A DNA stretch of 12,060 nucleotides from Nitrososphaeraceae archaeon (GCA_035250975.1 DATFEP010000034.1:1-12060), one strand, 5' to 3'; positions 1 through 12,047 are shown, numbered from the stretch's first letter. The notes: generated by a model not told the origin, from the letters alone. Made by a program: numbers and translations.

Positions 1-2
1 TT

Positions 3-292
3 ATTATACGAAATTATCCTGCAAAATATTTATCAATAATGGACGTAAGCAAATGCTTCTGTTGTAGTAATATCCAACGATGGTTAAAAAACTTGAAATT
101 TCTAATCACACTACTTGAAGAAAAATTGGAAGATGGTACAATAATTTAAAAATTATTTAAAAAATTCTGTAATTTAAAGGAATTGCTGAAGATCTCATTT
201 CAGACGCTAAACTAATGTGCAATATATTAGAAAGATTTATGACGAGTGGACATAAAGTCGAGATGGGAGAATTAATGGTCAAACATCTATAA
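3..292 (+). CDS. 3' end of a spliced hypothetical gene converging on the protease (exons <3-135, 180-292)
   Basis: Open frame IIRNYPAKYLSIMDVSKCFCCSNIQRWLKNLKFLITLLEEKLEDG joined by a 44-nt GT..AG intron (136-179) to IAEDLISDAKLMCNILERFMTSGHKVEMGELMVKHL*. No family recognised. Confidence 0.45.
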
Positions 293-378
293 TGAACGAA
301 GTAATACTTATACGATTAAAAAAAACAACTACCGTTAGGATGATAGAAGCTCACCATTTTAAGAACAAACTTTTTATA

Positions 379-840
379 TTATTTTATTGAATTTTTTACA
401 TAATTATATACAAATTGATCATTGTATGTATAATCCGATTTATAATATTTTAGAAAATCGTAAAATGCCTTATTGTTATGGCAATTAATTGACATATAGT
501 GAATAAATGCTAAACAATATACACCACAAAAATTTGAAAAATCAGATTGATAACGTTTAAAATTACGAGTAATGTATTTTATATCATTTACCTTTAAATT
601 ATTAACAATACATTTATTAGGGGGCTTACCTAAAGAATCAAAATAATAAATATGATTCGGTTTATCTATAAATATGCCAACCCAATGAACCCCTCTAGAT
701 CCTAGAGGCTCGATATTTAAAACTACAGTAGACGGAAATTTTACAATTCGTGGCATGACATCACACGGATAGCAACCAATGTAAAAATTCTTTGTATCAG
801 CACAGTTCCACAGAATTTTGTTTATTTGTTGTGTCTCCAT
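379..840 (-). CDS. PRO: Adenain-like (clan CE) cysteine maturation protease, 153 aa
   Basis: Catalytic His in GVHWVGI, acidic residue in YYFDSLG, oxyanion Gln and catalytic Cys in YQSDFSNFCGVYC. Typical Polinton/adenovirus protease size. Confidence 0.93.
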   Translation of the reverse strand: METQQINKILWNCADTKNFYIGCYPCDVMPRIVKFPSTVVLNIEPLGSRGVHWVGIFIDKPNHIYYFDSLGKPPNKCIVNNLKVNDIKYITRNFKRYQSDFSNFCGVYCLAFIHYMSINCHNNKAFYDFLKYYKSDYTYNDQFVYNYVKNSIK

Positions 841-1389
841 CCTTTATTAACCCTTTACTTTTTAATTCTATATCATCCACGGAATAAAAACTTTTTCGGT
901 ACTGCCGGCGGATTTGTATAAGTAAATGATGAAAATACAGGTAGAAACCAAATCCGGTTAACAAAGCGCTCGCCAGCAAGTATAATATACAATAAATTAA
1001 TTTTGCAGGCGATCCATTTTCATCCATATTCTGGGGAAAACATGCAACAACGTCAGGAAATGGGGTGGCTATCTGCTTCCCCGGTTCGTATAAATGAACT
1101 AAAATATTGAAAAATAATATATTACTATTTATTATAATAAAATAATACCCATAGGTCTTTGCTTCGATCGATAATTGGAGGAACCATTTATAGGATTGCT
1201 CAAATTATTTGATAGAGAAGTTGTTGTTATATATGTTGCATTAAGGCTCTCATAAAAATATATTTGTGGAGAAGTAGTTAGGTTTAATAACTCGATTAAA
1301 CCAGCGGTCGAGTTTGTAAAACCATTTATTTCAGAATATTTAATTAGTAATATATAAAGGCAAAAATATTTAGTGAGAAAAGCTGACAT
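797..1389 (-). CDS. Predicted type-I membrane glycoprotein, 180 aa (exons 1389-1149, 1098-797)
   Basis: A 50-nt GT..AG intron (1099-1148) joins ORFs 1132..1389 and 797..1027 in frame (QRPM-V-HLYEPGKQIATPFPDVVACFPQNMDENG). Hydrophobic N-terminus, S/T/N-rich region with sequons NST, NLT, NAT, NLS and NGS, one TM segment LIYCILYLLASALLTGFGFYLYF, then a basic tail. Confidence 0.75.
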
Positions 1390-1436
1390 TTCTTTAGAAT
1401 AATCTATAATTAGAATATAAAATAAATGGAAGATAA

Positions 1437-2981
1437 TTAGACAGTCATATCAGAGGTTAATTGTCGGTTTTTATCAATCATTAAAAGCGCGTCAACTTCT
1501 GCATAAGCAAGCATAATTAATCCCCCAGCGGGTACGGCTGCATCGAATTTTACCTCTACAGCAACTGTACCATCTTTTATCAATTCGAAACCCGGGTCAT
1601 TTTCCATAGAATTTGTTAAAACAAATGCAAATAACGTCCAGCCTTCTTTATACATGCCCATATCAATACCATTGCTGTCTGTTGAATAAGCATGACCCGT
1701 GTATTCTTGCATATCATGATAGGCTCGTACATAATGATTATTACCAAAGTTTAAATTATAAGGAACTTGCGGATAATTCCGACCTTAGAAAAAATAACAT
1801 TAAATATATTAAAATATTGTCGAATACCATTCGCAGTTATAGATATCTCTCTTATAGAATGATGTTTAAAATTAAATGGGGATTTTTGTTTATTCCCGTC
1901 ATAGGCAGATCGTTCCAAGATTCCTATACTCTACAGGTATTAATTCTAGGTCATAATATAAATTTAGAACCGATTATAATTCGCCTCGGGACCTCATTTG
2001 TAAATAAATTAGCATTGAATTCAGTTCTCCCTATATCGAAACATTGAAATATGATATCCGATATAAAATTTTTACCCTCGGTTATAGCAAGGGTTTTCAG
2101 CATCGTTTTTCGAAGTCCATATCTTGCAGGTTGAGTTTCTAATTTTCTTGCCATATCCAAAGACAGGCTATAAAATGAATTTATTTTTTAAAAAATTAGT
2201 TACGCTAACCCATCCATAAGATCTACAGTTTTGACGAATAATTTACAGCTGACAATCTCCAAAGCATAGTTTTCCAAATTAGCTATAGGTTGTATAAACA
2301 GAAATTTCGAGTTTTCATGTGGAGTAATCTCGATATCAATTTCTACATTATTAACCAAATATAATTCTTGGTTGAATAAATCAGCATCGATTTTATGTAT
2401 AAGTTGGACGGTTTTACTCTCAGCAAAGGATTCTTTCCGCTTAATATAGCCAGCTCCAGCATTAGAATCTTGATCCGCCCCATCCCTCGAATATCCTGTG
2501 CACGTTAAAAACGAATCCTTTACAGCAATAGGATACGAAAGCTCATAATCCATATAAGCTTTATAAGAATATAATCCATTGCTATCAAATGTTTCCTAAA
2601 TAAATAAAGCATATGTTTTTTAGAATTTTATTATGTGCATATTACCTGCCCATTTACAACTATTTTTAGGTTTTTTATATAGGTTGCTCCAATCATCTGT
2701 ATAGTGCTAATATCTTCTCCTGCTGGTACATTAATAGGATTATTTGCTGCATCCAATTTTCTTAGTTTCATTTCCGTTTGAATATAACATTTCGATAGAT
2801 CAATAAAGGAGGTTATCGGATGGATTTTAAAATGGAAAGGTGTAGAAGTTATAGGGTTTAAAGTCAATATTTGTCGATACGCACTGTTCGCTATAGAAAC
2901 ATTCGTTGGAGGGGTTTCAAATAAATTTAATGCACTAGTAATAGTGCTAACACTCGTCGAGTCGATTTTCTTATAAAGCAT
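1437..2981 (-). CDS. MCP: Major capsid protein (double jelly-roll, Polinton PY/hexon-like), about 440 aa; exons 2981-2646, 2595-2204, 2167-2076, 2030-1971, 1923-1828, 1783-1437
   Basis: Five GT..AG introns (50, 36, 45, 47, 44 nt) give a 1323-nt open frame. Polinton MCP-like motifs: LNLFETPPTN, FIDLSKCYI, YSYKAYMDYELSY, DLFNQELYLVNNVEI, VPRRIIIG, SPFNFKH, GWTLFAFVLT, LLMIDKNRQL. Confidence 0.9.
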
Positions 2982-3142
2982 TATATCTATAATTCTCTGT
3001 AAAAAAATTAGAAGAGGTAATGAACATACATTTGTGCTAAATATTAACAGGGGAAAACATATACAACCAATTCTAACAAAAATATAAATATTTATTGTCA
3101 CATACAAATAAATATGCAAGGAGATAAAATTAATTAACTATA

Positions 3143-3727
3143 TTAATAATAGCCTAACGCATCATGACGTTGTTTTTTCGGTGGATTCTGGGTAATTAAT
3201 TTAGCCGAACCAGCTAAAGGTCTTTTAAATTGTATAGCTTTTCCGATAATATTATCGGGCTTCAGCATAACATGAGAGCCAACCCCTTTTTTTCGTCTCT
3301 TTTTTCCAGATCCCTGTTGCAATTTTTGTTGTAAGGTCGTATTCGCTTTGTCTATAAGCCTTCGAACACCTTCTCTTCCTTCGTCAGCTATAGCTGCTTT
3401 AGGCTCTTTGCCTTGAACTATATCTGTGAGAGCTCTTGCACCTACTGCAATTCCTTCATTTCCTATAGCTCTTCCAGCCTCTTTGGCCATAGGAGCCAAA
3501 GTATGACCAATTTTCATAGCCATAGGTTTTAATGCTCTATATATACTCCGAAATATATCTCCAAGCCCGTATCCTCTTTGTCGAGCCAAGGAACTTCCTA
3601 CAAAATATCCAACGCCTCTTTGATGAAATAGAGGGAGTCCTTCAAAGTATGCAGAGCCCGAGCCATCCCCTAATTGATAAAAATTTTCTAGACGAACATC
3701 GGTTCCATCAAATATAACATGGACCAT
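3143..3727 (-). CDS. Basic virion core / membrane-active protein (adenovirus pVI/pVII-like Maverick conserved ORF), 194 aa
   Basis: Repeated QxGxG motifs, an amphipathic helix GLGDIFRSIYRALKPMAMKIG directly after QRGYG, and a K/R-rich C-terminus (KKRRKK). Lies between the two capsid genes, as is usual in Polintons. Confidence 0.75.
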   Translation of the reverse strand: MVHVIFDGTDVRLENFYQLGDGSGSAYFEGLPLFHQRGVGYFVGSSLARQRGYGLGDIFRSIYRALKPMAMKIGHTLAPMAKEAGRAIGNEGIAVGARALTDIVQGKEPKAAIADEGREGVRRLIDKANTTLQQKLQQGSGKKRRKKGVGSHVMLKPDNIIGKAIQFKRPLAGSAKLITQNPPKKQRHDALGYY

Positions 3728-3728
3728 T

Positions 3729-3963
3729 TTAAGGAATTAGACTAAAATTTAAATATAGTAAATAAATCTAAGCGTACTTACAATTTTTCTCGGATAACCA
3801 ATTTAATATTCAGTTTGACTTCGTTAAACAATAGGCTTAATACGTCAGTTGCAAATAAATATCCATCATCTTTATTGACCATTATACTCAAATTTTTAGC
3901 CATTATAAAGACTATTTTTAAAATATATAGACAGAGTTTTAGACTCTTCATTTGCATATCCAC
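3729..3963 (-). CDS. Small hypothetical spliced ORF (start codon uncertain; intron 3742-3781)
   Basis: A perfect GTAAGT donor and TTTTAG acceptor define a 40-nt intron that replaces the stop, giving ...VIREKFLIP* and ending 1 nt before the next ATG (3727). Confidence 0.4.
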
Positions 3964-4033
3964 GAAATGTTAAGAATAATATTTATTGTGAATACAAATA
4001 TATGCAATATATGTTTATAATACATAACAATTA

Positions 4034-5704
4034 TTAAAAAGGAATGGCTTTTTTAAAAACTAATGTGACAATAACAATTCCCTCAAAAGGAATAGGCCGA
4101 CCTTCCAAGCTTCGAACTTCTATAGTAATATCGTTTATTTCTTTTGCAATAACTCGAGAAAAATTTGGGTTATCATATGTTTTTTCAATAATATCTCCAG
4201 GTCTCCCTGATACAGCAACAATTTGTAGTAATGATGACATCTTATCCCCTATAATGGTATTCTCCAAAACTCCAGCATTTATATAAACACATAAATGCGA
4301 AACACCTAAAATTATATAGAGAACGAGACTATATAAAAATGTATACCTCCTCTCAAATCGCAAGCATATAAGGCCAAGTCATCAGCAAATAGAGGCTTAC
4401 CCACTTCGAATCCCAGCACATATGAAATTTGATCGGATAATTGAATATTTTTTATTTGATGGTCATTAATTCTCAAACAAAAGCGTCCAATATCATCTTG
4501 ATATTCAAATTTAATCGACTTGGCTAAATTAATTCGCTTTTCATATTCTTTTGTTAATTTTTTGTTATGCTCTTCTATCCGGGATTGAGGAGCATTAGAC
4601 AATATTTCCATAAATTTTTTCTCGTCATCTGCAGCTTCCACCAATTTCCAATATAATGGACTTCCAATCTCTGCTACACCAGCAGCCATATCCATTAACC
4701 ATTTCCTCTTGGCCTGTTTTGATTGATGCAATGTTTCGTTTTTCCATTTATTTTTGTCTCTTTCTTCTTTTTCACGTACAATTTCCATCAGATTTTTTAA
4801 ACTTTTGGGCTTCTTTTTATAACGGGCTTGGAGATCTGGATAATTCATAAAGAAATGGTCAGTAGGAAGACGTTGGGCCATATAATCTATTTCATCGTCT
4901 TCAAGCTCTGTATCACTATCTTCGATTTCTTGGACACTATTTCCCGCATTGACCTCAATATTCTCGTTTTTGGTATTTTCTTTTGGGGTCCCTTGGTTCT
5001 GCTCTTGTGTTTTTTGAGGAATAGCTTTAGTTTCTGGTACTGTTCCCGCTTCTCCAGACTTGATCGAACCATGGATTTTATCTGGTCGATCAGAAGTTGA
5101 AACATTTTGAACCTTGTGATAAACATGAGGGGTACTAGTTTCTTCGAGAACTGCCTCGTTGTCGAAATATCTTAAGTCGGATACATATTCCTCGGTTAAT
5201 TTTTGTTGCTTCGCAGCTTTTTCTTCGTTGTTATTTTTTACAGCACTTCGTTTAGATCGAGTATTAGGTTTTGTCGAACTTGATACGTTTAGTATATAAT
5301 TTTCTAATCTTTTAGATGAAAACTCTTCTTCAATTTGTTTAATTATCCCTTTCTCCAAACCTGCTTCAAGCTGTTTAGGCGAAAGATAAGATCCTTTAGC
5401 TATTCGGAATCGATAAGTACTTGTATCCCTTAATATTATTTCGATGTATTGAGCTTCCGTTGTTCCTATAGCAGGCCATGTATTAGGGTAGACAATACCT
5501 TAAAATAAACATGTAAAAAAATTTACATATTTTCTTACTTTTTAAACCACACAACCAATGTCCTTTATCAAATTCCAGCTTTTTGGGAAATTGGATTCGA
5601 AATTTATATGGTCGATTTTGTTCGGGTAATTTATTTTCGTCAAAATCCGCTCCAGTATATGGAGTATTGCTGGGTAATATAATATTAAACATAGAGCTTG
5701 ACAT
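4034..5704 (-). CDS. mCP: Minor capsid protein (penton, single jelly-roll) with large internal insertion, about 529 aa; exons 5704-5539, 5498-4347, 4305-4034
   Basis: Introns of 40 and 41 nt join three ORF fragments in frame. Polinton penton-like motifs: FNIILPSN, WLCGLKSIVYPNTW, KGSYLS, ISYVLGF, LCVY..VLENTIIGDKMSSLLQIV, ITIEVRSLEGRPIPF..VIVTLVFKK. Confidence 0.85.
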
Positions 5705-5758
5705 AATACAAGGAAAATAACAAATAGTTTTTCACTAAATAAAAATTAATTACATACT

Positions 5759-6993
5759 CTAATTAACAAAATCAGATTCATTAATCCAATATGTGTCGTG
5801 CGGATAACCAACAAACTGAACTCTATACTCTAGTTCTCCCTTTTTATTACGTCTTTTCTGTAAAACTCGATCAATCCTATATGTAGCATTCTTATCTTCA
5901 CGAGTTTTAGTAAGCTCTTCACTATAAAATCTTCCTTCTATAGGATCATTTTTATGGTCGCGCAAATAATAATAAGGAGGTGAATTTGGATCATTTTTGA
6001 CAACTCTATCGACTTTAAATATTTCATCACTGAAAGTTGGGACATATCCTTTGCGAAAAATTCTTTTCTCAAGAGCAATCCTTACATCATCCTCTTTTTT
6101 AAACCTTGGTGGTTTACGTGAAAGTTTATCACAGTCATATAGCTTCTTCCATAAGTTATTGGCATTTTCAGGTGTTACGTCAATGGGCCTCATGCCAGTT
6201 GATCGACATATCGACTTATTTATAGATTTTAATACATCATCAATAATATCCACCCAATTTGTCGTATTCTTATCAGAAAATATTTTGTATAGCTTTTGTT
6301 TAATAGTTCTTATCTATAAAGTATACAATATTTTTTCACATTAGTATTAAATTATTTTTTACCATTCTTTCAGCAACAGCAGCCTTCACACTCTTATCTG
6401 TACTACAATGCTTTGCTATATATTTTTCCTCCTTAAAGTATTTATGCATCTCTTTTGATTCAAATTCTTTGCCTGCAACAAATATCTGTAGAAATTACAT
6501 AATAATTATTCTAACCTTGATCAGTAAATAATCTTTGCGGCAGAATAGGCGTTTTATCGTCAAACAATTTATCAAAGGCCTTTATCATATCAAGAGAAGA
6601 TTTACTCTTGACAGGTATACCAAATACCATTCGACTTAATACATCTACTACTACCAATAAATAACGATATCCCCTATTTTTTGCTGCCAAAGATTGGAAA
6701 TCTAAAAAATATATTAGTACATGTTAGAAAAATGTTTAACCTGCTAAATCGGCTTGAAAATCCGTCATATATCCTGCAGGAACTGTTTTACTTCTTGGAA
6801 ATTTTAATTGCCTCGGTTTAAATAATCCATATGTTCTTTCTCCATCAAGAAAGTATAACACGTCATCATATTTTATATTATTATTTGCTTTCTTAGCTTC
6901 TTGATATAAAGCTTTGATGCCCGCATAAGAACCAGCGGTAGAAATATTAGAGTAAATATTTTTTAAAATTTTTTGTTTTTCCTCATGATCCAT
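5759..6993 (-). CDS. INT: Retroviral-like DDE integrase with C-terminal chromodomain, about 367 aa; exons 6993-6741, 6701-6516, 6472-6363, 6313-5759
   Basis: Introns of 39, 43 and 49 nt give an open frame with FQADLADF..YLLVVVDVLSR (D), LFTDQGKEF (D), KAAVAERMIRTIK (E), FRKGYVPTFSDEIF, and chromodomain YRIDRVLQKRRNKKGELEYRVQFVGYP..YWINESDF. Confidence 0.95.
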
Positions 6994-7982
6994 TTCGAGG
7001 GTCGAAAATTATCAGTATTTTTACAACAATTGCCTTTGCCTCTTTGAAATTTGGCGCTACTACTTGATGGTTTTAGCGGGTCAGATTCAAAATTAAATAA
7101 ATTTGAAAAATCTTGATAATATTGACCAAATGGCACTCTCCTTTTCTGAGCTTCTGAAATTAAATTATTCGTATAGTGATTATTGAGCAAAGAGTTCCGC
7201 AGCGCAGTCGTTCCAGCAGGACTAGGCAAGTTCTCCAGTGTAGGAAAAAGAATACGCTCAATCGCTTCATCGAGATTAGAATTTTTTATATATGTTTTTG
7301 CTTTTATAGACGTTTTTACATGCAGGCCATCTTTAGTTATAGGAAATTTATCTGCATTATTAAGCAAATATTGTTTTAATTGATTTTTCATTTCATTCTT
7401 TTCATTTTCTTGCATGTGCATAAACGGGGCGGCAAGCCTTCTCCCCCTACTGCTAAATTGAGGGGTAACAAAAGCTTCTCTCATCGGATTTACAGGGGTT
7501 CCTTCACTATTAACTTCACTCTTCTCAAATCGTGGAATATAGGAGTCATCAAACCAATAATCTTCAAAATCGCCTTGGTCGTTATAAATACCTCCTTGTG
7601 CCCCGGCATTTTTACCACTTTTAATTAACACTTTAGCTCCAGAAGGTACCAATTCAACCTTAACGGGTCGATTTTTTGCTTCATCTCTTAGACGTAAATA
7701 GCGCCGCAGGGCTTGATCATATAAAATCTTTTTTGTTGATATAGTTGTACCCTTTTTTGGCATTATTTGTCCCTTATGAAATATTTTTCGTCTGATTAAT
7801 CGTTTTTTAAAAGGTTTTGAGCTTCTTCTAGTTTTAAGTTCTCGGTTAATAGCTTTATCTGCATAATCCAGACGTCCTACTTCGGCTAAATCGTGGGAGT
7901 TACTGGATATTTTAGTAGTTTTGGCCGTGGATAATAATCCTTTATACATATCTTCAGGTACCACCATTAAACGGCGAGCCAT
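6963..7982 (-). CDS. Conserved Maverick ORF of unknown function (PZ-like), basic, 339 aa
   Basis: Long ORF starting MARRLMVVPE, with KKILYDQALRRYL, resembling the uncharacterised ORF that precedes INT in many Mavericks. QRGKG near the C-terminus. Stop overlaps the integrase start by 31 nt. Confidence 0.7.
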   Translation of the reverse strand: MARRLMVVPEDMYKGLLSTAKTTKISSNSHDLAEVGRLDYADKAINRELKTRRSSKPFKKRLIRRKIFHKGQIMPKKGTTISTKKILYDQALRRYLRLRDEAKNRPVKVELVPSGAKVLIKSGKNAGAQGGIYNDQGDFEDYWFDDSYIPRFEKSEVNSEGTPVNPMREAFVTPQFSSRGRRLAAPFMHMQENEKNEMKNQLKQYLLNNADKFPITKDGLHVKTSIKAKTYIKNSNLDEAIERILFPTLENLPSPAGTTALRNSLLNNHYTNNLISEAQKRRVPFGQYYQDFSNLFNFESDPLKPSSSSAKFQRGKGNCCKNTDNFRPSKWIMRKNKKF

Positions 7983-8027
7983 CTTTTTAACTAGACAGTA
8001 TTCGAATAAAATAACATAAAAATAATT

Positions 8028-8426
8028 TTAAAAAAGAAATCGCAAATACCTAGACACTTTTTCAATAATAGCTCTTGCAACTTCGGCTATAATAGGGGAT
8101 AGTAGGGCAACAAATAAAGGACCGTTGCCGTATTGGTTTATTATACACCTCTTTGCACTTTTTTCAGATCGTTTTCTAGAAATAGCTCTAACTATCGGAG
8201 CAAATTGCTGCAAGCGTCGAATCTGTCGATTAGATATGCAGAAACAACCAGGACGTAATATATTTGAACAAATTTCTACTAATGCCAAAAGTTCGTCATT
8301 ATTAGCCTTTTTAATGATTTTCCACCGGCGTGAGTCACTTTTAGAGCGGCTAAGGCGTTTCAAAAATTTGATGTTATTAAATACTCTAGTTCCAATAATA
8401 GAAGAATTCGATAATTGTTGTACCAT
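8028..8426 (-). CDS. Small basic Maverick conserved ORF (PW-like / putative virion core protein), about 130 aa
   Basis: LLALVEICSNIL motif, Arg/Lys-rich middle, then QYGNG followed by the hydrophobic/amphipathic PLFVALLSPIIAEVARAII. A possible 59-nt terminal intron (7991-8049) would change the end to EKVSS* at 7987. Confidence 0.75.
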   Translation of the reverse strand: MVQQLSNSSIIGTRVFNNIKFLKRLSRSKSDSRRWKIIKKANNDELLALVEICSNILRPGCFCISNRQIRRLQQFAPIVRAISRKRSEKSAKRCIINQYGNGPLFVALLSPIIAEVARAIIEKVSRYLRFLF

Positions 8427-8440
8427 CCGAAGTATTTATT

Positions 8441-9156
8441 TTATAACGGGGCGAAAATTGTACAGCTATTTATATAATCGACGTTGTCGTTTTGTTTAAC
8501 AGGAAAAATATCTGTCCTAAGTTTCAAAATAGGATTACTAGCGGGATGTAAATCAACAAATAAGTATCCGTATGGCTTTTCTGTCGCCTTTTTATATGCA
8601 TCCAGGAAATAAGGTAATTGACGTGGAAAAAGTTGGGTTCCGAGGTTCCGGATTTGTAATTGGGCCGATGGCGCCCTCATCAAGCATAAATAATGGCTAT
8701 TTGTTCGGGCTATTTTTAATGAAGGTTGGAAAAGATTCTGGCAAAGTAATAGGATTGAGAAGTTTTCATGATGGGAACGTTTTGTATACATATCCGATAA
8801 CCATTTTTCATTTAACGATAGCATCAAATCATCAAGAATTATTAGGCCAGGTTTTGGCAACGAAGATATGATATCATCATTTGGCATTCCTGCACAAATT
8901 TTTATTCCATCATTTTCCAAACTTGGTATATGATTATGAAATTGTCCATAGCAATATAATATTGATGATGTAGATCGAAGAGCAGGTTCAAACATTTCTT
9001 TATAATTTTCCAATACTTTTAAAAGAAAGGTTGTTTTACCTATATTTTAAAGTAAGTTTTTTATACTTAAAATATTATCTGACCAGAGCTAGATGGACCA
9101 CTAACAATTATTCCGCTAGGGAGCTTTATTTTCAGATCATCATTGAAGAGGTTCAT
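8441..9156 (-). CDS. ATP: A32/FtsK-HerA-type DNA packaging ATPase; exons 9156-9084, 9039-8441
   Basis: A 44-nt intron (9040-9083) splits Walker A. The spliced N-terminus is MNLFNDDLKIKLPSGIIVSGPSSSGKTTFLLKVLENY. Walker B LIILDDLM, plus RSHHENFSILLLCQNLF, RTNSHY and PYGYLFVDLHP..LRTDIF. Confidence 0.95.
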
Positions 9157-9263
9157 AATTATAAATTATTTTTTTAGAAATTAAGCTTTTCTAAAGTTTT
9201 CAATTAATAAGTTTATCATTCTATGCAAATGTCAGTACAAAACCATATGATTGTAGATCAAAA

Positions 9264-9527
9264 TTAATTATTTTTAATGTAGTCTTGAATGTTAACATTA
9301 GTGGAATTAAATGTACGTATATACTCAACAAGTAGATCATACATTTTCCTACTTTTAATCCAAAAGCCTACATGACCTTCATCCTTATACCAAAAATTAC
9401 ATTGAACAACTTTCCATGACAGGTTTGGACAACTTAAATTGTTTGTTATATTCGCGCATTGTAATTCAGTATTTACCTTTTTAGAGTGTAAAAAGAGTGA
9501 ACGTTTGTGCAATTGGTCGTTTTCCAT
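9264..9527 (-). CDS. Hypothetical protein, 87 aa
   Basis: ATG-initiated ORF co-oriented with the cluster. No motif recognised. Confidence 0.35.
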   Translation of the reverse strand: MENDQLHKRSLFLHSKKVNTELQCANITNNLSCPNLSWKVVQCNFWYKDEGHVGFWIKSRKMYDLLVEYIRTFNSTNVNIQDYIKNN

Positions 9528-9807
9528 ATCTTTTGATCAAATTTTCCGATGAATTTTTTAAAAAATTTTGAAAATTCTTTTAAAAGCATTTTCTTTTTAA
9601 AGTAGATCATTATCGATCCTTTCACATCTATTGAATTCCAACGTCCACATAGTTCAACAACATTGCGCGAATTCTTTTTTTCTTCGCCTGCGAGTACTTT
9701 TTACAGCAAATATAACAAACAATTTTTAATTAACATATATAACTGAATATTCGGTGAAGCATTTAGTGTATAGAATATTATGCTATCAATAAAATTACAT
9801 ATTCACA

Positions 9808-10517
9808 TTAATCAGAGCCTAATGAAGCAAAGTATACTGTTTCACCTACACGAATATTTCCTTTTACACAAGATTTACAAAACGAACGTGTTTCATAGAG
9901 TCGATCATCAATCACTTCATAACTAGTGTTTGTCTTGTTATGATCTCGGCAGTTTTTGCACATGGTGTTGATGCAGACAAAGTCAAACTTCGAAATCTTC
10001 CAGAATTCGTTTTCACGTTCCAGTGGATCAACATCTTTCTTTTCCTTCTTATCTGATGCTTTAACAAAGGCCGCAGCTTTTGGACGAGATGTTTTGACAT
10101 AGATGATGTCCTCATTATCATCAGTCTTAATATATTTAATACATGGAATATAAAACTAGTTGACAATTTTTATCAGCTTGCCTTAGTTTTGATTCCATTA
10201 GGCTTGCTGGACATTGTCTTCTTGTTCTCAGTGAAGGTATCACTATCTAAAACGATCAAAAGTTAATATAAATTAATACAATAAAATCATGTCATCTTAT
10301 TAATAAAACGTTATAACATACCATCGCTAGCTGCTCGTTTTTTAATTTGTCTTGATTGTACAGATGATGACTCACTTTCTTAAAGACTATATTAATTAAT
10401 GTACCATATTAATTATTTTGTAAAGAAAATACTTTTGTCATTGAGAGCCGTCTTTTTGTTGTTGGGTATATCACTAAGCTTTCTTGCACCAGGGATAATG
10501 TTATTTGCTCCAGGCAT
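9808..10517 (-). CDS. Predicted Cys4 zinc-finger protein, about 174 aa; exons 10517-10433, 10378-10322, 10246-10182, 10125-9808
   Basis: A 106-codon stop-free last exon, absent from the ORF track, contains CKNC-x23-CKSC. It is joined to a K/S-rich N-terminus (MPGANNIIPGARK..QIKKRAASD..) through introns of 54 and 75 nt (GT-AG) and 56 nt (AAG|GCAAG..TTAAG, GC-AG), all preserving frame. Confidence 0.65.
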
Positions 10518-10703
10518 GATGTTTAATTAGGCGTAATTAATGTATAATATAAGTTAATTTTTCTATAGAGAAGATGAATCAATATTGCTAAAGCTTGTCA
10601 AATTAATAAACTTTGGAGGGAATATCGATTGAATGTATACATATGTACATGCATGAACATCAATAATAAGTTCCACCTACTCAAAACTAGGTCAAATGAC
10701 CTG

Positions 10704-10736
10704 TGATGCGTCGCGGCTTAGATTGATGCGTCGCGG
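10704..10736. repeat. Direct repeat TGATGCGTCGCGG x2 (period 20 bp)
   Basis: Identical 13-mers at 10704-10716 and 10724-10736, CpG-rich in an AT-rich background. Confidence 0.9.
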
Positions 10737-10918
10737 TCAGTTGTGTAATTCTTTTACTTTTTCCTTTAAACTAAGGCTGATTTGGTGTATTTCATCACCC
10801 TTTTTTCGTTAAGCTCCGCCCACTCGTGCCAGGCTCTTTAACGAATGATGTGTATGTACATGTAAACAACTTAGCCACACGGGAATATGACCTAATTTTA
10901 GTGCTGTGCAGGCAGTAG

Positions 10919-11083
10919 ATGGCGTTACTTTATAACACATAGGTATATGCGCAGTACTTTCTAGCATGGCGTCACTTTATAACACATAGGTATATGCGCA
11001 GTACTTGCTAGCATGGCGTCACTTTATAACACATAGGTATATGCGCAGAACTTTCTAGAATGGCGTCACTTTATAACACATAG
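10919..11083. repeat. Tandem repeat, 47-bp unit, about 3.5 copies
   Basis: Unit ATGGCGTCACTTTATAACACATAGGTATATGCGCAGTACTTTCTAGC starts at 10919, 10966, 11013 and 11060 (partial), with 1-2 mismatches per copy and no spacers. Confidence 0.97.
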
Positions 11084-11225
11084 ATATATATATATTATGC
11101 AATCGATTACGAAATAACTAGTTTAGATAGTTGCGTAATTTGTTTATACGTTAATTACCTGCTTTAGTTAGTTTATTGTATGTTAAATTTCCTTTAGCAT
11201 AGCTACTGATAAATTTAAAACTAAA

Positions 11226-12047
11226 ATGTCAACGGAACACATAAATACAAAACCATTGATTGAAGTATTAATTGCGACATTTAAATGCAATCGATCTGCA
11301 TTACAAGATAAACTTAACCATCCTTTGGCATTGAACAAAGTTTTATCGATTATAAGAGGAAACCAACTACAAACAATATACAAGGATAGAAATGGGCGAA
11401 AGAAAGAAGTAAAATGTTCATGGTTATCGATTAAGCCTGCAAGCTCGCAACCAGCATATGAAGGATACTTAAACAGTCATTAATTTAATAAATAATTCTT
11501 AATATAATTATTTTTAGTAAGTGTGCAACAACATTTTTATTGTCGACATAGAATTCGACTCGAATACCCCCATATGAAATGCATTGTAGAAGAACATAAG
11601 AATGGGCATAATAAATATTATCCCATCGAACTGCTTGAAATTATTCTACCGGAAAACCTTCAAAAGGTTTGTGTTCAGAATTACAATGTTTAAATATATT
11701 TTACTTAAATGATAGGAGGAAGAAAATGTTAGCCCTCCTACAGGTTTAAATGATACCGTAAGTGGCTGGACTGATAGCGAAGACGAGGACTCAAATAGTG
11801 CAGGAACGCAGGATGGGGGAGATCTACCTACATATACAGAGGTCAAAAAGACTGTGATGGAAAAAATATTAAAGGTTTAATATTTCTGACTTATGTAGAC
11901 TCTTCACATAAATAATTCAATGACAAGGAAGAAAAGGAGACGCAGACACCGAAGACAGAAAAAAACAGACCGTATGCAGTAATCACACTCTCTGATGATG
12001 AAGAGTTAGACGATATACTTAGACAATATTGGTCTAGTTTCTATTAA
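11226..12047 (+). CDS. Stand-alone PAZ-domain protein with acidic C-terminal tail, about 225 aa; exons 11226-11475, 11518-11666, 11716-11874, 11928-12047
   Basis: A 42-nt intron (11476-11517) extends the ORF into ISVQQHFYCRHRIRLEYPHMKCIVEEHKNGHNKYYPIELLEII, matching the Argonaute PAZ signature (TV.qYF...Y.i.L.YP.LPC....YlP.El..I). Further introns of 49 and 53 nt (last acceptor weak). AATAAA at 12046-12051 overlaps the stop. Confidence 0.8.

Follow-up and report, generated by a model that had tools for sequence, protein, structure and literature searches.

Background

The core genes of Mavericks (Polintons) have been described as intronless. In vertebrates, an 'intact' Maverick was defined by eight intronless open reading frames (ORFs) and introns were not seen in intact elements (PMC8097293). 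In nematodes, the core genes of the Maverick of C. plicata were described as intronless, with introns in cargo genes (Widen et al., bioRxiv 10.1101/2022.07.12.499685), and fragmented ORFs were dropped as pseudogenes in another study (Jeong et al., PMC10748475). Similarly, a prokaryotic gene finder was applied to endogenous viruses since these 'do not contain introns' (PMC10120064). Intron-containing genomes of related kind include the dinoflagellate eupolintoviruses, whose introners belong to known families, lie for about 25% in coding regions and are mostly recent, the intactness of the elements being left open (PMC12166617), and cryptophyte Polinton-like viruses (PLVs), which have self-splicing group I introns of 309-376 bp in one short gene (PMC12220804). 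We analysed a stretch of 12,060 nt (the window) that is deposited as part of a Nitrososphaeraceae archaeon (GCA_035250975.1, DATFEP010000034.1:1-12060). We found that it is part of a likely nematode Maverick/Polinton in which the genes for the major capsid protein (MCP), penton, integrase (INT) and packaging ATPase carry 11 site-conserved introns that are very likely spliced by the host, a reading to which we assign a probability of about 85%. The papers cited above bear out two remarks of the first-pass annotation of this DNA, namely that most described Polinton core genes are single-exon or intron-poor, and that ORF-based surveys would call an element such as this one degraded.

Results and discussion

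Introns in the core genes

The four core genes, all located on the minus strand, are broken at 11 points: five in MCP, two in the penton gene, three in INT and one in the ATPase gene, exactly the numbers given in the first-pass annotation. Every break coincides with a GT..AG segment of 39-50 nt, and full-length homologues align in blocks that skip 13-17 codons' worth of window DNA per break. Spliced alignment to intron-free homologues, which indeed do not align through the segments, spans residues 1-438 of 438 for MCP, 4-359 of 359 for INT and 1-202 of 214 for the ATPase, and after splicing of these three no frameshift, stop or insertion of at least five residues remains. The penton was examined at its two conserved ends only, and against one homologue. 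The integrase D/D/E residues, the Walker A motif of the ATPase and the H/D/C residues of the protease, whose roles we take to be the catalytic ones, are present, as had been claimed. The core introns are richer in A+T (81%) than the exons of MCP, INT and the ATPase gene (66%). The AT-rich range of 36-50 nt proposed earlier stands for the core introns as 39-50 nt. A 36-nt reading of MCP intron 2 scores below the 42-nt reading, which is favoured because relatives use the corresponding donor site. The accessory introns measure 42-75 nt, some being longer than the proposed range, and include one with a GC donor.

In total 21 candidate introns are present between 136 and 11927, where about 20 had been proposed. 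Independent support was found for 16 of them (the 11 core introns, three in accessory gene A supported by reads, one in a membrane protein gene supported by orthologues and one in a PAZ gene supported by homology) and five are predicted only (one in the leftmost gene, two in accessory gene B and two in the PAZ gene).

One alternative is that the breaks result from decay or assembly errors, with GT..AG segments that fit by chance. AT-rich DNA abounds in GT..AG pairs with such spacing (a single-exon gene of 1017 nt has 49 pairs of 36-60 nt), most core junctions have no read joint (see below), and the explanation may apply to the five predicted-only accessory introns. As a control for chance we took all removable segments of 28-80 nt per break (315-782 each) and scored their flanks against the homologues. 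When the ends were left free, the removal that scored best had the length of the GT..AG segment at 11 of 11 breaks. At each of the 11, GT..AG trails the top score by no more than 10 points, in which it is unique among the 256 end pairs: the runner-up fits eight breaks and 243 of the pairs fit three or fewer. Chance is also countered by L007, a copy from a second assembly that matches the window at 99.5% identity along 9159 nt and is broken at the same points. Together with the conservation described in the next section, these data make decay a practically negligible explanation of the core breaks.

Some database proteins read through the intron sites. For instance, P0031 and P0051 have an unrelated insert of 12-14 residues at the same position, which in P0051 (71% identical ATPase) is a read-through of 14 residues at the site of the window's ATPase intron. 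Such inserts are expected, because a gene caller would translate an in-frame intron. Some of the 'intron-free' database proteins perhaps derive from spliced RNA; the MCPs in which the lack of introns was seen in DNA are those of L004, L008 and L021 only.

Conservation in relatives and selection

Three relatives (L023, L024 and L026) with about 70% DNA identity to the window retain 10 of the 10 core introns that can be checked in DNA, at the same site and in the same phase. In MCP, all five introns are found at the same codon in L023, and four of the four covered in L024. Intron 1 (2596-2645, 50 nt, phase 0) measures 58 nt in L023, intron 2 (2168-2209, 42 nt, phase 2) 41 nt in L023 and 40 nt in L024, intron 3 (2031-2075, 45 nt, phase 1) 40 nt in both and intron 4 (1924-1970, 47 nt, phase 1) 45 and 44 nt, respectively; intron 5 (1784-1827, 44 nt, phase 1) also occupies the relatives' site. 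Intron 3 is in frame and free of stops in the window, and is settled as an intron because its position is kept in the relatives and its length differs. L026 keeps the sites of all three INT introns (6740-6702, 39 nt; 6515-6473, 43 nt; 6362-6314, 49 nt) and of both penton introns (5538-5499, 40 nt, and 4346-4306, 41 nt, measuring 50 and 40 nt in L026).

The sequences of orthologous introns are barely more similar than those of unrelated ones (score 16.6 versus 13.7, sd 6.8), and the length difference is not a multiple of three in nine of ten orthologous pairs. The MCP exons, compared with those of L023, show a dS of 2.18, a dN of 0.155 and a dN/dS of 0.07. Between L007 and the window, the four core genes differ by 12 synonymous and 6 non-synonymous substitutions (pN/pS 0.13, p 3e-5). 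Purifying selection across inserts that change the frame implies that the inserts must be removed. The two comparisons proposed in the first-pass annotation, of intron positions among relatives and of dN/dS, both support its reading of the breaks as introns. The segments have the properties of U2-type introns, with GT (or GC)..AG ends on the coding strand where homologues skip, a position that is kept and a sequence and length that drift. The data support the interpretation of the core breaks as spliceosomal introns rather than decay, and decay with chance fits is ruled out for the 11 core introns by the orthologous introns with different lengths at the same codon and phase.

Identity and origin of the element

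The window comprises the whole of contig C49 of a 2.49-Mb assembly (G000) that carries an archaeal amoA. The MCP family has no match in the 24 other genomes of the archaeal genus and matches 3 of the 238 genomes of the family, and the tetranucleotide profile of the contig is off for a contig of such size. We rejected the possibility that the contig is part of a prokaryotic genome on the basis of the absence from the genus and the deviant profile, in an assembly that is itself archaeal by its amoA. All homologues with a named organism are from nematodes (Heterodera, Globodera, Meloidogyne and Aphelenchus), plant-parasitic and fungus-feeding, in agreement with the nematode-like host suggested earlier, and the runs that contain window DNA are rhizosphere metagenomes. 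The window is likely a mis-binned piece of a Maverick/Polinton from a nematode, putatively a soil nematode. G000 also holds a second mis-binned Maverick piece (L008, contig C91, 724-2046), the MCP of which has no introns, and G042 holds several Maverick pieces, both with and without introns. Searches of a viral contig collection by single exon, MCP alignment or 25-nt pattern yielded no relatives.

The assignment to the Mavericks rests on several genes. INT (5759..6993) encodes a retrovirus-like DDE integrase with a C-terminal chromodomain-like region (Pfam rve above cut-off, E 5e-8; Chromo, E 4e-4), with a full-length spliced alignment and the D, D and E motifs. The MCP gene (1437..2981, six exons) was delineated by tblastn and spliced alignment to homologues of about 440 aa. 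Its double jelly-roll fold was recognized via the homologue P0008 (53-66% identical by segment to the window MCP), whose model (pLDDT 63) matches the MCPs of mavirus, PBCV-1 and Sputnik (E 7e-13); a PDB sequence search with the MCP alignment gave no matches. The gene for the A32-like packaging ATPase (8441..9156, intron at 9083-9040, 44 nt) has 172 homologues, many with PF04665, and its Walker A motif is encoded across the intron. PRO (379..840, minus strand, single exon) encodes an adenain-like cysteine protease with the H, D and C motifs (Peptidase_C48 above cut-off, E 6e-6; Peptidase_C5 below cut-off, E 0.004) and has orthologues in L023 and L024. The probable penton, a minor capsid protein (4034..5704), is assigned tentatively, by gene order, a syntenic homologue in the intron-free L004 and a weak hint from the Atlas, where 21% of one cluster carry PF21507. 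The penton-like gene contains a long acidic low-complexity insert within 4347-5498, and the length and sequence of this region vary widely in L004 and L006.

RNA evidence

Three runs of one study (X1-X3) were available as contigs and were aligned to positions 1-10900 at 85% likeness; X3 gave nothing and was not used. Joints with GT..AG on the coding strand were found in the core genes for MCP intron 5 and INT intron 1, and in accessory gene A for each of its three introns (10432-10379, 54 nt; 10321-10247, 75 nt; 10181-10126, 56 nt, GC donor). The gene A joints come from X1 and X2, a single 197-nt X2 contig spans two joints, and a 5-nt offset at the third is explained by an allele that is also seen in L007. 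The splicing of gene A is well supported; that of the core genes is only suggested by direct RNA evidence. In the spliced-RNA check proposed in the first-pass annotation, joints were thus seen for two of the 11 core introns and all three gene A introns.

All seven X1 indels fall outside exons, three of these within introns; MCP intron 2 and the first intron of gene B each contain an X1 indel of 1 nt. Among the best-supported 40 of 81 X1 substitutions, a non-random choice, 17 are synonymous and 17 non-synonymous (pN/pS 0.26). At window 4277-4315, loose ends of X1 contigs point, by eye, to a relative of the element in which another GT..AG segment occupies the place of penton intron 2.

Several observations weigh against our reading of the window. 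The runs are labelled 'RNA? (probably DNA)', and their contigs, all of one study, are metatranscriptomic by label. Nine of the 11 core introns, MCP intron 1 among them, lack a listed joint, and X1 contigs are unspliced across the first four introns of MCP, the two of the penton gene and the third of INT. The two core joints, both from X1, have shorter sides of 27 nt (MCP intron 5) and 28 nt (INT intron 1), and sides this short at 85% likeness often come from other organisms. A 2431-nt X1 contig lacks 63 nt of INT (window 6109-6171, plus strand). Intron-bearing relatives have true breaks as well, in L006 (INT near 229) and L024 (MCP at 2004 and PRO near 441). A search of G000, G042 and G180 for a protein-primed family B polymerase gave only weak PF03175 matches below the cut-off, and no long inverted repeat of the kind that a Maverick terminus should have was found at the contig ends, the flanks lying outside the assembly.

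Read on the plus strand, and thus antisense to INT, this 63-nt gap begins with GT and ends with TTTTCAG, a typical nematode splice acceptor, and the same contig retains the sense-strand introns; the gap may reflect splicing of an antisense transcript or, alternatively, loss of DNA between 4-nt microhomologies. In L021, INT also has a break that no intron explains (near 2180). Among intron-bearing and intron-free relatives alike, we regard the unexplained breaks as decayed copies or assembly errors.

As the polymerase and the terminal inverted repeat were not found in the contig, the element is incomplete in the window, and it probably continues past the contig end. The earlier description of an intact, potentially functional element thus stands for the genes that are present, which are under purifying selection, and not for the element as a whole. 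The same two absences fit the possibility that the introns are real but belong to a remnant that has been domesticated or has lost its mobility, a vertically inherited host gene cluster that gained introns as host genes do. The relatives could then be orthologues of different nematode species, and a precedent exists in the domesticated Tc1-like elements of molluscs, which gained introns and lost their repeats (bioRxiv 10.1101/656579). We nevertheless consider such a remnant quite unlikely, given that a whole morphogenesis and integration set is present in Maverick order and under purifying selection, that several diverged versions occur within one assembly, and that L006 has a rearranged gene order with its own introns. 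In addition, L023 and L024 run into tandem-repeat DNA right after PRO, which would represent the end of the element.

Placement of the introns at conserved motifs

Another important finding was that the introns of our Maverick are located at conserved motifs. Each INT intron lies 2-3 codons after one of the D, D and E residues, and the intron of the ATPase gene falls within the Walker A motif. We examined 10 window introns (the penton, with its single homologue, was excluded) using windows of 3 and 5 residues, and found mean conservation percentiles of 0.81 and 0.87, respectively (p no higher than 2e-4). The corresponding values for 10 introns from other lineages were 0.63 (p 0.08) and 0.73 (p 0.006). 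The motif bias persists when the null is restricted to G|G sites, where it was reached in 0 of 20000 draws for 18 introns. Introns missed in variable regions are not the cause, because MCP, INT and the ATPase align end to end. The stronger bias in the older, shared introns than in the others fits a retention ratchet, in a small sample. At conserved motifs only exact removal would be tolerated, whereas inserts in variable regions can be absorbed or imprecisely lost, and introns would for this reason persist at motifs; we give the ratchet a little less than an even chance.

Other lineages and the origin of the introns

Introns of the same size at other sites were found in L002, L003, L006 and L022. 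Altogether we mapped 25 distinct intron sites in DNA in five element lineages, and the introns are 39-50 nt at all 25. A G precedes the donor at 20 and follows the acceptor at 15 of the 25 sites; such G flanks are an ordinary splice-site preference. The MCP tree, built from one 128-residue region with 39 rows and having a poorly resolved backbone, contains well-supported sister pairs that differ in intron content. For instance, P0004 (without insert) pairs with the intron-bearing L002 (support 99/96), and P0018 (without insert) groups with four proteins that all stop prematurely at a common site (100/98). For the ATPase, a quick tree of 113 rows, including two single exons, was made after exclusion of proteins shorter than 165 aa from the 119 homologues. 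The window, P0051 (which shares the intron) and two proteins without the first-exon region form a 100% group, nested in a larger group of mixed intron content.

Repeated intron gain is the simplest reading, because the sites differ between lineages and the published Caenorhabditis and vertebrate elements are intronless. Against it counts that the preference for gain over loss is an argument of parsimony and not a test, given the tree backbone. As other lineages are either intron-free or carry introns at different sites, those of the window would have been gained singly, after the lineage had settled in a nematode nucleus. The introns could also stem from a transposon of the introner type that entered copies already integrated, an account of their origin that is compatible with our reading of the element and for which dinoflagellate polintoviruses provide a precedent (PMC12166617). 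The narrow length range and the G flanks would be in line with this, but such flanks are also found at ordinary splice sites, and no sequence family is apparent among 18 window introns (the top pair scores 37, reached by 7% of shuffles). An old introner family would now be invisible because the orthologous introns are near saturation. On balance we find an introner origin rather unlikely.

Of the 13 introns found in other lineages, seven are at a distance of 2-19 nt from an intron of the window, at a site that is not shared (2.0 expected within 20 nt, p 0.0013), and four of 13 lie within 10 nt (p 0.014), with thresholds that were picked post hoc and 11 of the 13 introns coming from two loci. 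A common attraction to conserved motifs may explain this clustering. Further intron sites are suggested at the protein level, by inserts or early ends near residue 180 of the ATPases P0133, P0145, P0148 and P0150, and near residues 119, 244, 285 and 393 of the MCPs P0009, P0010, P0019, P0022, P0023 and P0026.

Other genes of the window

The two gene blocks of the window diverge from a non-coding region that contains a 47-nt tandem repeat with 3.6 copies (10919..11089). This repeat is located in a probable divergent promoter region, and the anatomy suggests that host RNA polymerase II would transcribe both blocks from around it. The host spliceosome would then remove the introns, as is partly seen in the RNA joints, and the cost to the element would be a dependence on hosts that can splice introns of 40-50 nt.

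On the minus strand, MCP and PRO are separated by a predicted small membrane glycoprotein gene (797..1389) with an intron at 1148-1099 (50 nt); after its removal the sole stop is the last codon. L023 and L024 have a 40-nt GT..AG segment ahead of an exon homologous to that of this gene. Upstream of MCP lies the gene for a conserved basic protein (3143..3727, minus strand, single exon) with syntenic homologues in L004 and L006 and Atlas neighbours that are unnamed and mostly from nematodes, followed by a putative small ORF of 59 codons (3778..3957, minus strand). Two conserved uncharacterised ORFs precede INT on the same strand, one of 339 codons (6963..7982) and one of 132 codons (8028..8426), and for both a similar ORF was seen by eye at the same place in L006. 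These two, the basic protein gene and PRO are intron-free.

Upstream of the ATPase gene, accessory gene B (9264..9762, minus strand, 135 codons) has two introns predicted by frame arithmetic (9734-9688 and 9476-9433), and one read joint likewise ends at the acceptor at 9688. Accessory gene A (9808..10517, minus strand) encodes a protein with two CxxC motifs and, once spliced according to the X1 and X2 joints, has its sole stop at the last codon. A 21-nt near-duplication is present at the start of gene A (10484-10523). An X1 joint with a side of 30 nt skips 200 nt (9688..9887, minus strand, GT..AG) and would link gene A in frame to gene B, the frame being open. The skip would cut gene A before the second CxxC motif and is possibly an alternative splice form joined to gene B. 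At the left end of the window, a small predicted gene of 69 codons on the plus strand (39..292) owes its predicted intron (136-179, 44 nt) to frame arithmetic and GT..AG ends.

A PAZ-fold gene and possible evasion of silencing

The right block consists of a gene on the plus strand (11226..12047) for a stand-alone PAZ-fold protein with an acidic tail (Pfam PAZ, E 9e-5; 50 family members), which had not been mentioned in the first-pass annotation. Neither had the age of the introns, their sharing with diverged relatives or their position at conserved motifs. The first intron of the PAZ gene (11476-11517, 42 nt) is supported by homology; the other two (11667-11715 and 11875-11927) are predicted. 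The model of a homologue, P0178 (pLDDT 87), matches Argonaute PAZ (E 7e-7). The family model shares the fold of Argonaute PAZ (PDB 8thq and 1si2; TM about 0.6 by query and 0.76 by target), whereas the window protein differs in being stand-alone, encoded by a mobile element, provided with an acidic tail and 20-25% identical, with a putative RNA binding function. A stand-alone PAZ-fold gene is also found in the differently arranged L006 (3560-4100), with an intron one codon apart, and P0171, P0174 and P0176 have read-through inserts near the PAZ intron site that other family members do not have. We found no paper in a literature search that joins a PAZ domain with a Maverick/Polinton.

The stand-alone PAZ gene is a candidate small-RNA antagonist. 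In the germline of C. elegans, a gene deprived of its introns can become subject to Argonaute silencing, and transgenes that have introns stay expressed more readily (PMC12055998, citing earlier work). The first-pass suggestion that introns may help the transcripts pass as self would draw on this C. elegans work, and an element that needs germline expression could benefit. By analogy, splicing might raise germline expression of the element by avoiding the small-RNA silencing of intronless RNA, to which the PAZ-fold protein might add by binding the 3' ends of small RNAs, a tentative proposal that we hold to be somewhat short of an even bet. It is a weakness of this step that it is drawn from analogy and that the route is assumed to exist in the actual host.

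Taken further, nematodes may harbour a radiation of Mavericks, invisible to ORF surveys, that keep gaining introns, accumulated at catalytic and structural motifs, while remaining mobile, and in which the introns and a captured PAZ gene form a two-part defence against silencing; as a whole we regard this view as doubtful. If it is true, sister elements with and without an intron would form a natural series for studying the birth of an intron and its worth to a virus. Introns are seldom gained, by a mechanism that is still debated; the 25 sites mapped in DNA in five lineages, together with intron-free sisters, would make both mechanism and selective value testable. A reliance on very short introns could also restrict the hosts that are open to a horizontally moving Maverick. 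Intron-bearing lineages are scored as fossils or missed because the surveys cited in the Background detect or define working Mavericks and endogenous polintoviruses by unbroken ORFs. As the window shows, a complete set of capsid and integration genes can persist in these lineages under selection, over times in which silent sites become saturated.

Comparison with known systems

We found no description of conserved spliceosomal introns in Maverick core genes in a literature search that did not extend to the first papers on these elements, a review of 2024, notes in repeat databases or supplementary files, where one may exist; PMC8502044 and bioRxiv 10.64898/2026.07.28.741278 likewise contained nothing on the subject. 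What is new, in our view, is that the core genes of a Maverick lineage have kept spliceosomal introns over a long time; the Maverick kind itself is known. With the nematode Mavericks of Widen et al. and Jeong et al., the window shares the integrase, ATPase, protease and major and probable minor capsid genes, a double jelly-roll MCP and nematode homologues. It differs from them in the conserved introns of its core genes, in the polymerase, which is not in the contig, and in having no 730-aa fusogen ORF in the window; a small membrane protein is encoded between MCP and PRO. Similarly, it has the kinds of core genes and the compact modules of the vertebrate Mavericks (PMC8097293), but these are intronless when intact whereas the core genes of the window carry introns. 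The cryptophyte PLVs (PMC12220804) also have introns in a Polinton-like genome, but theirs are non-spliceosomal. The dinoflagellate elements (PMC12166617) are, like the window, of Polinton type with introns of spliceosomal type. In contrast to their introners, the introns of the window are unrelated to each other in sequence, old, and located at conserved motifs in core genes whose exons are under purifying selection.

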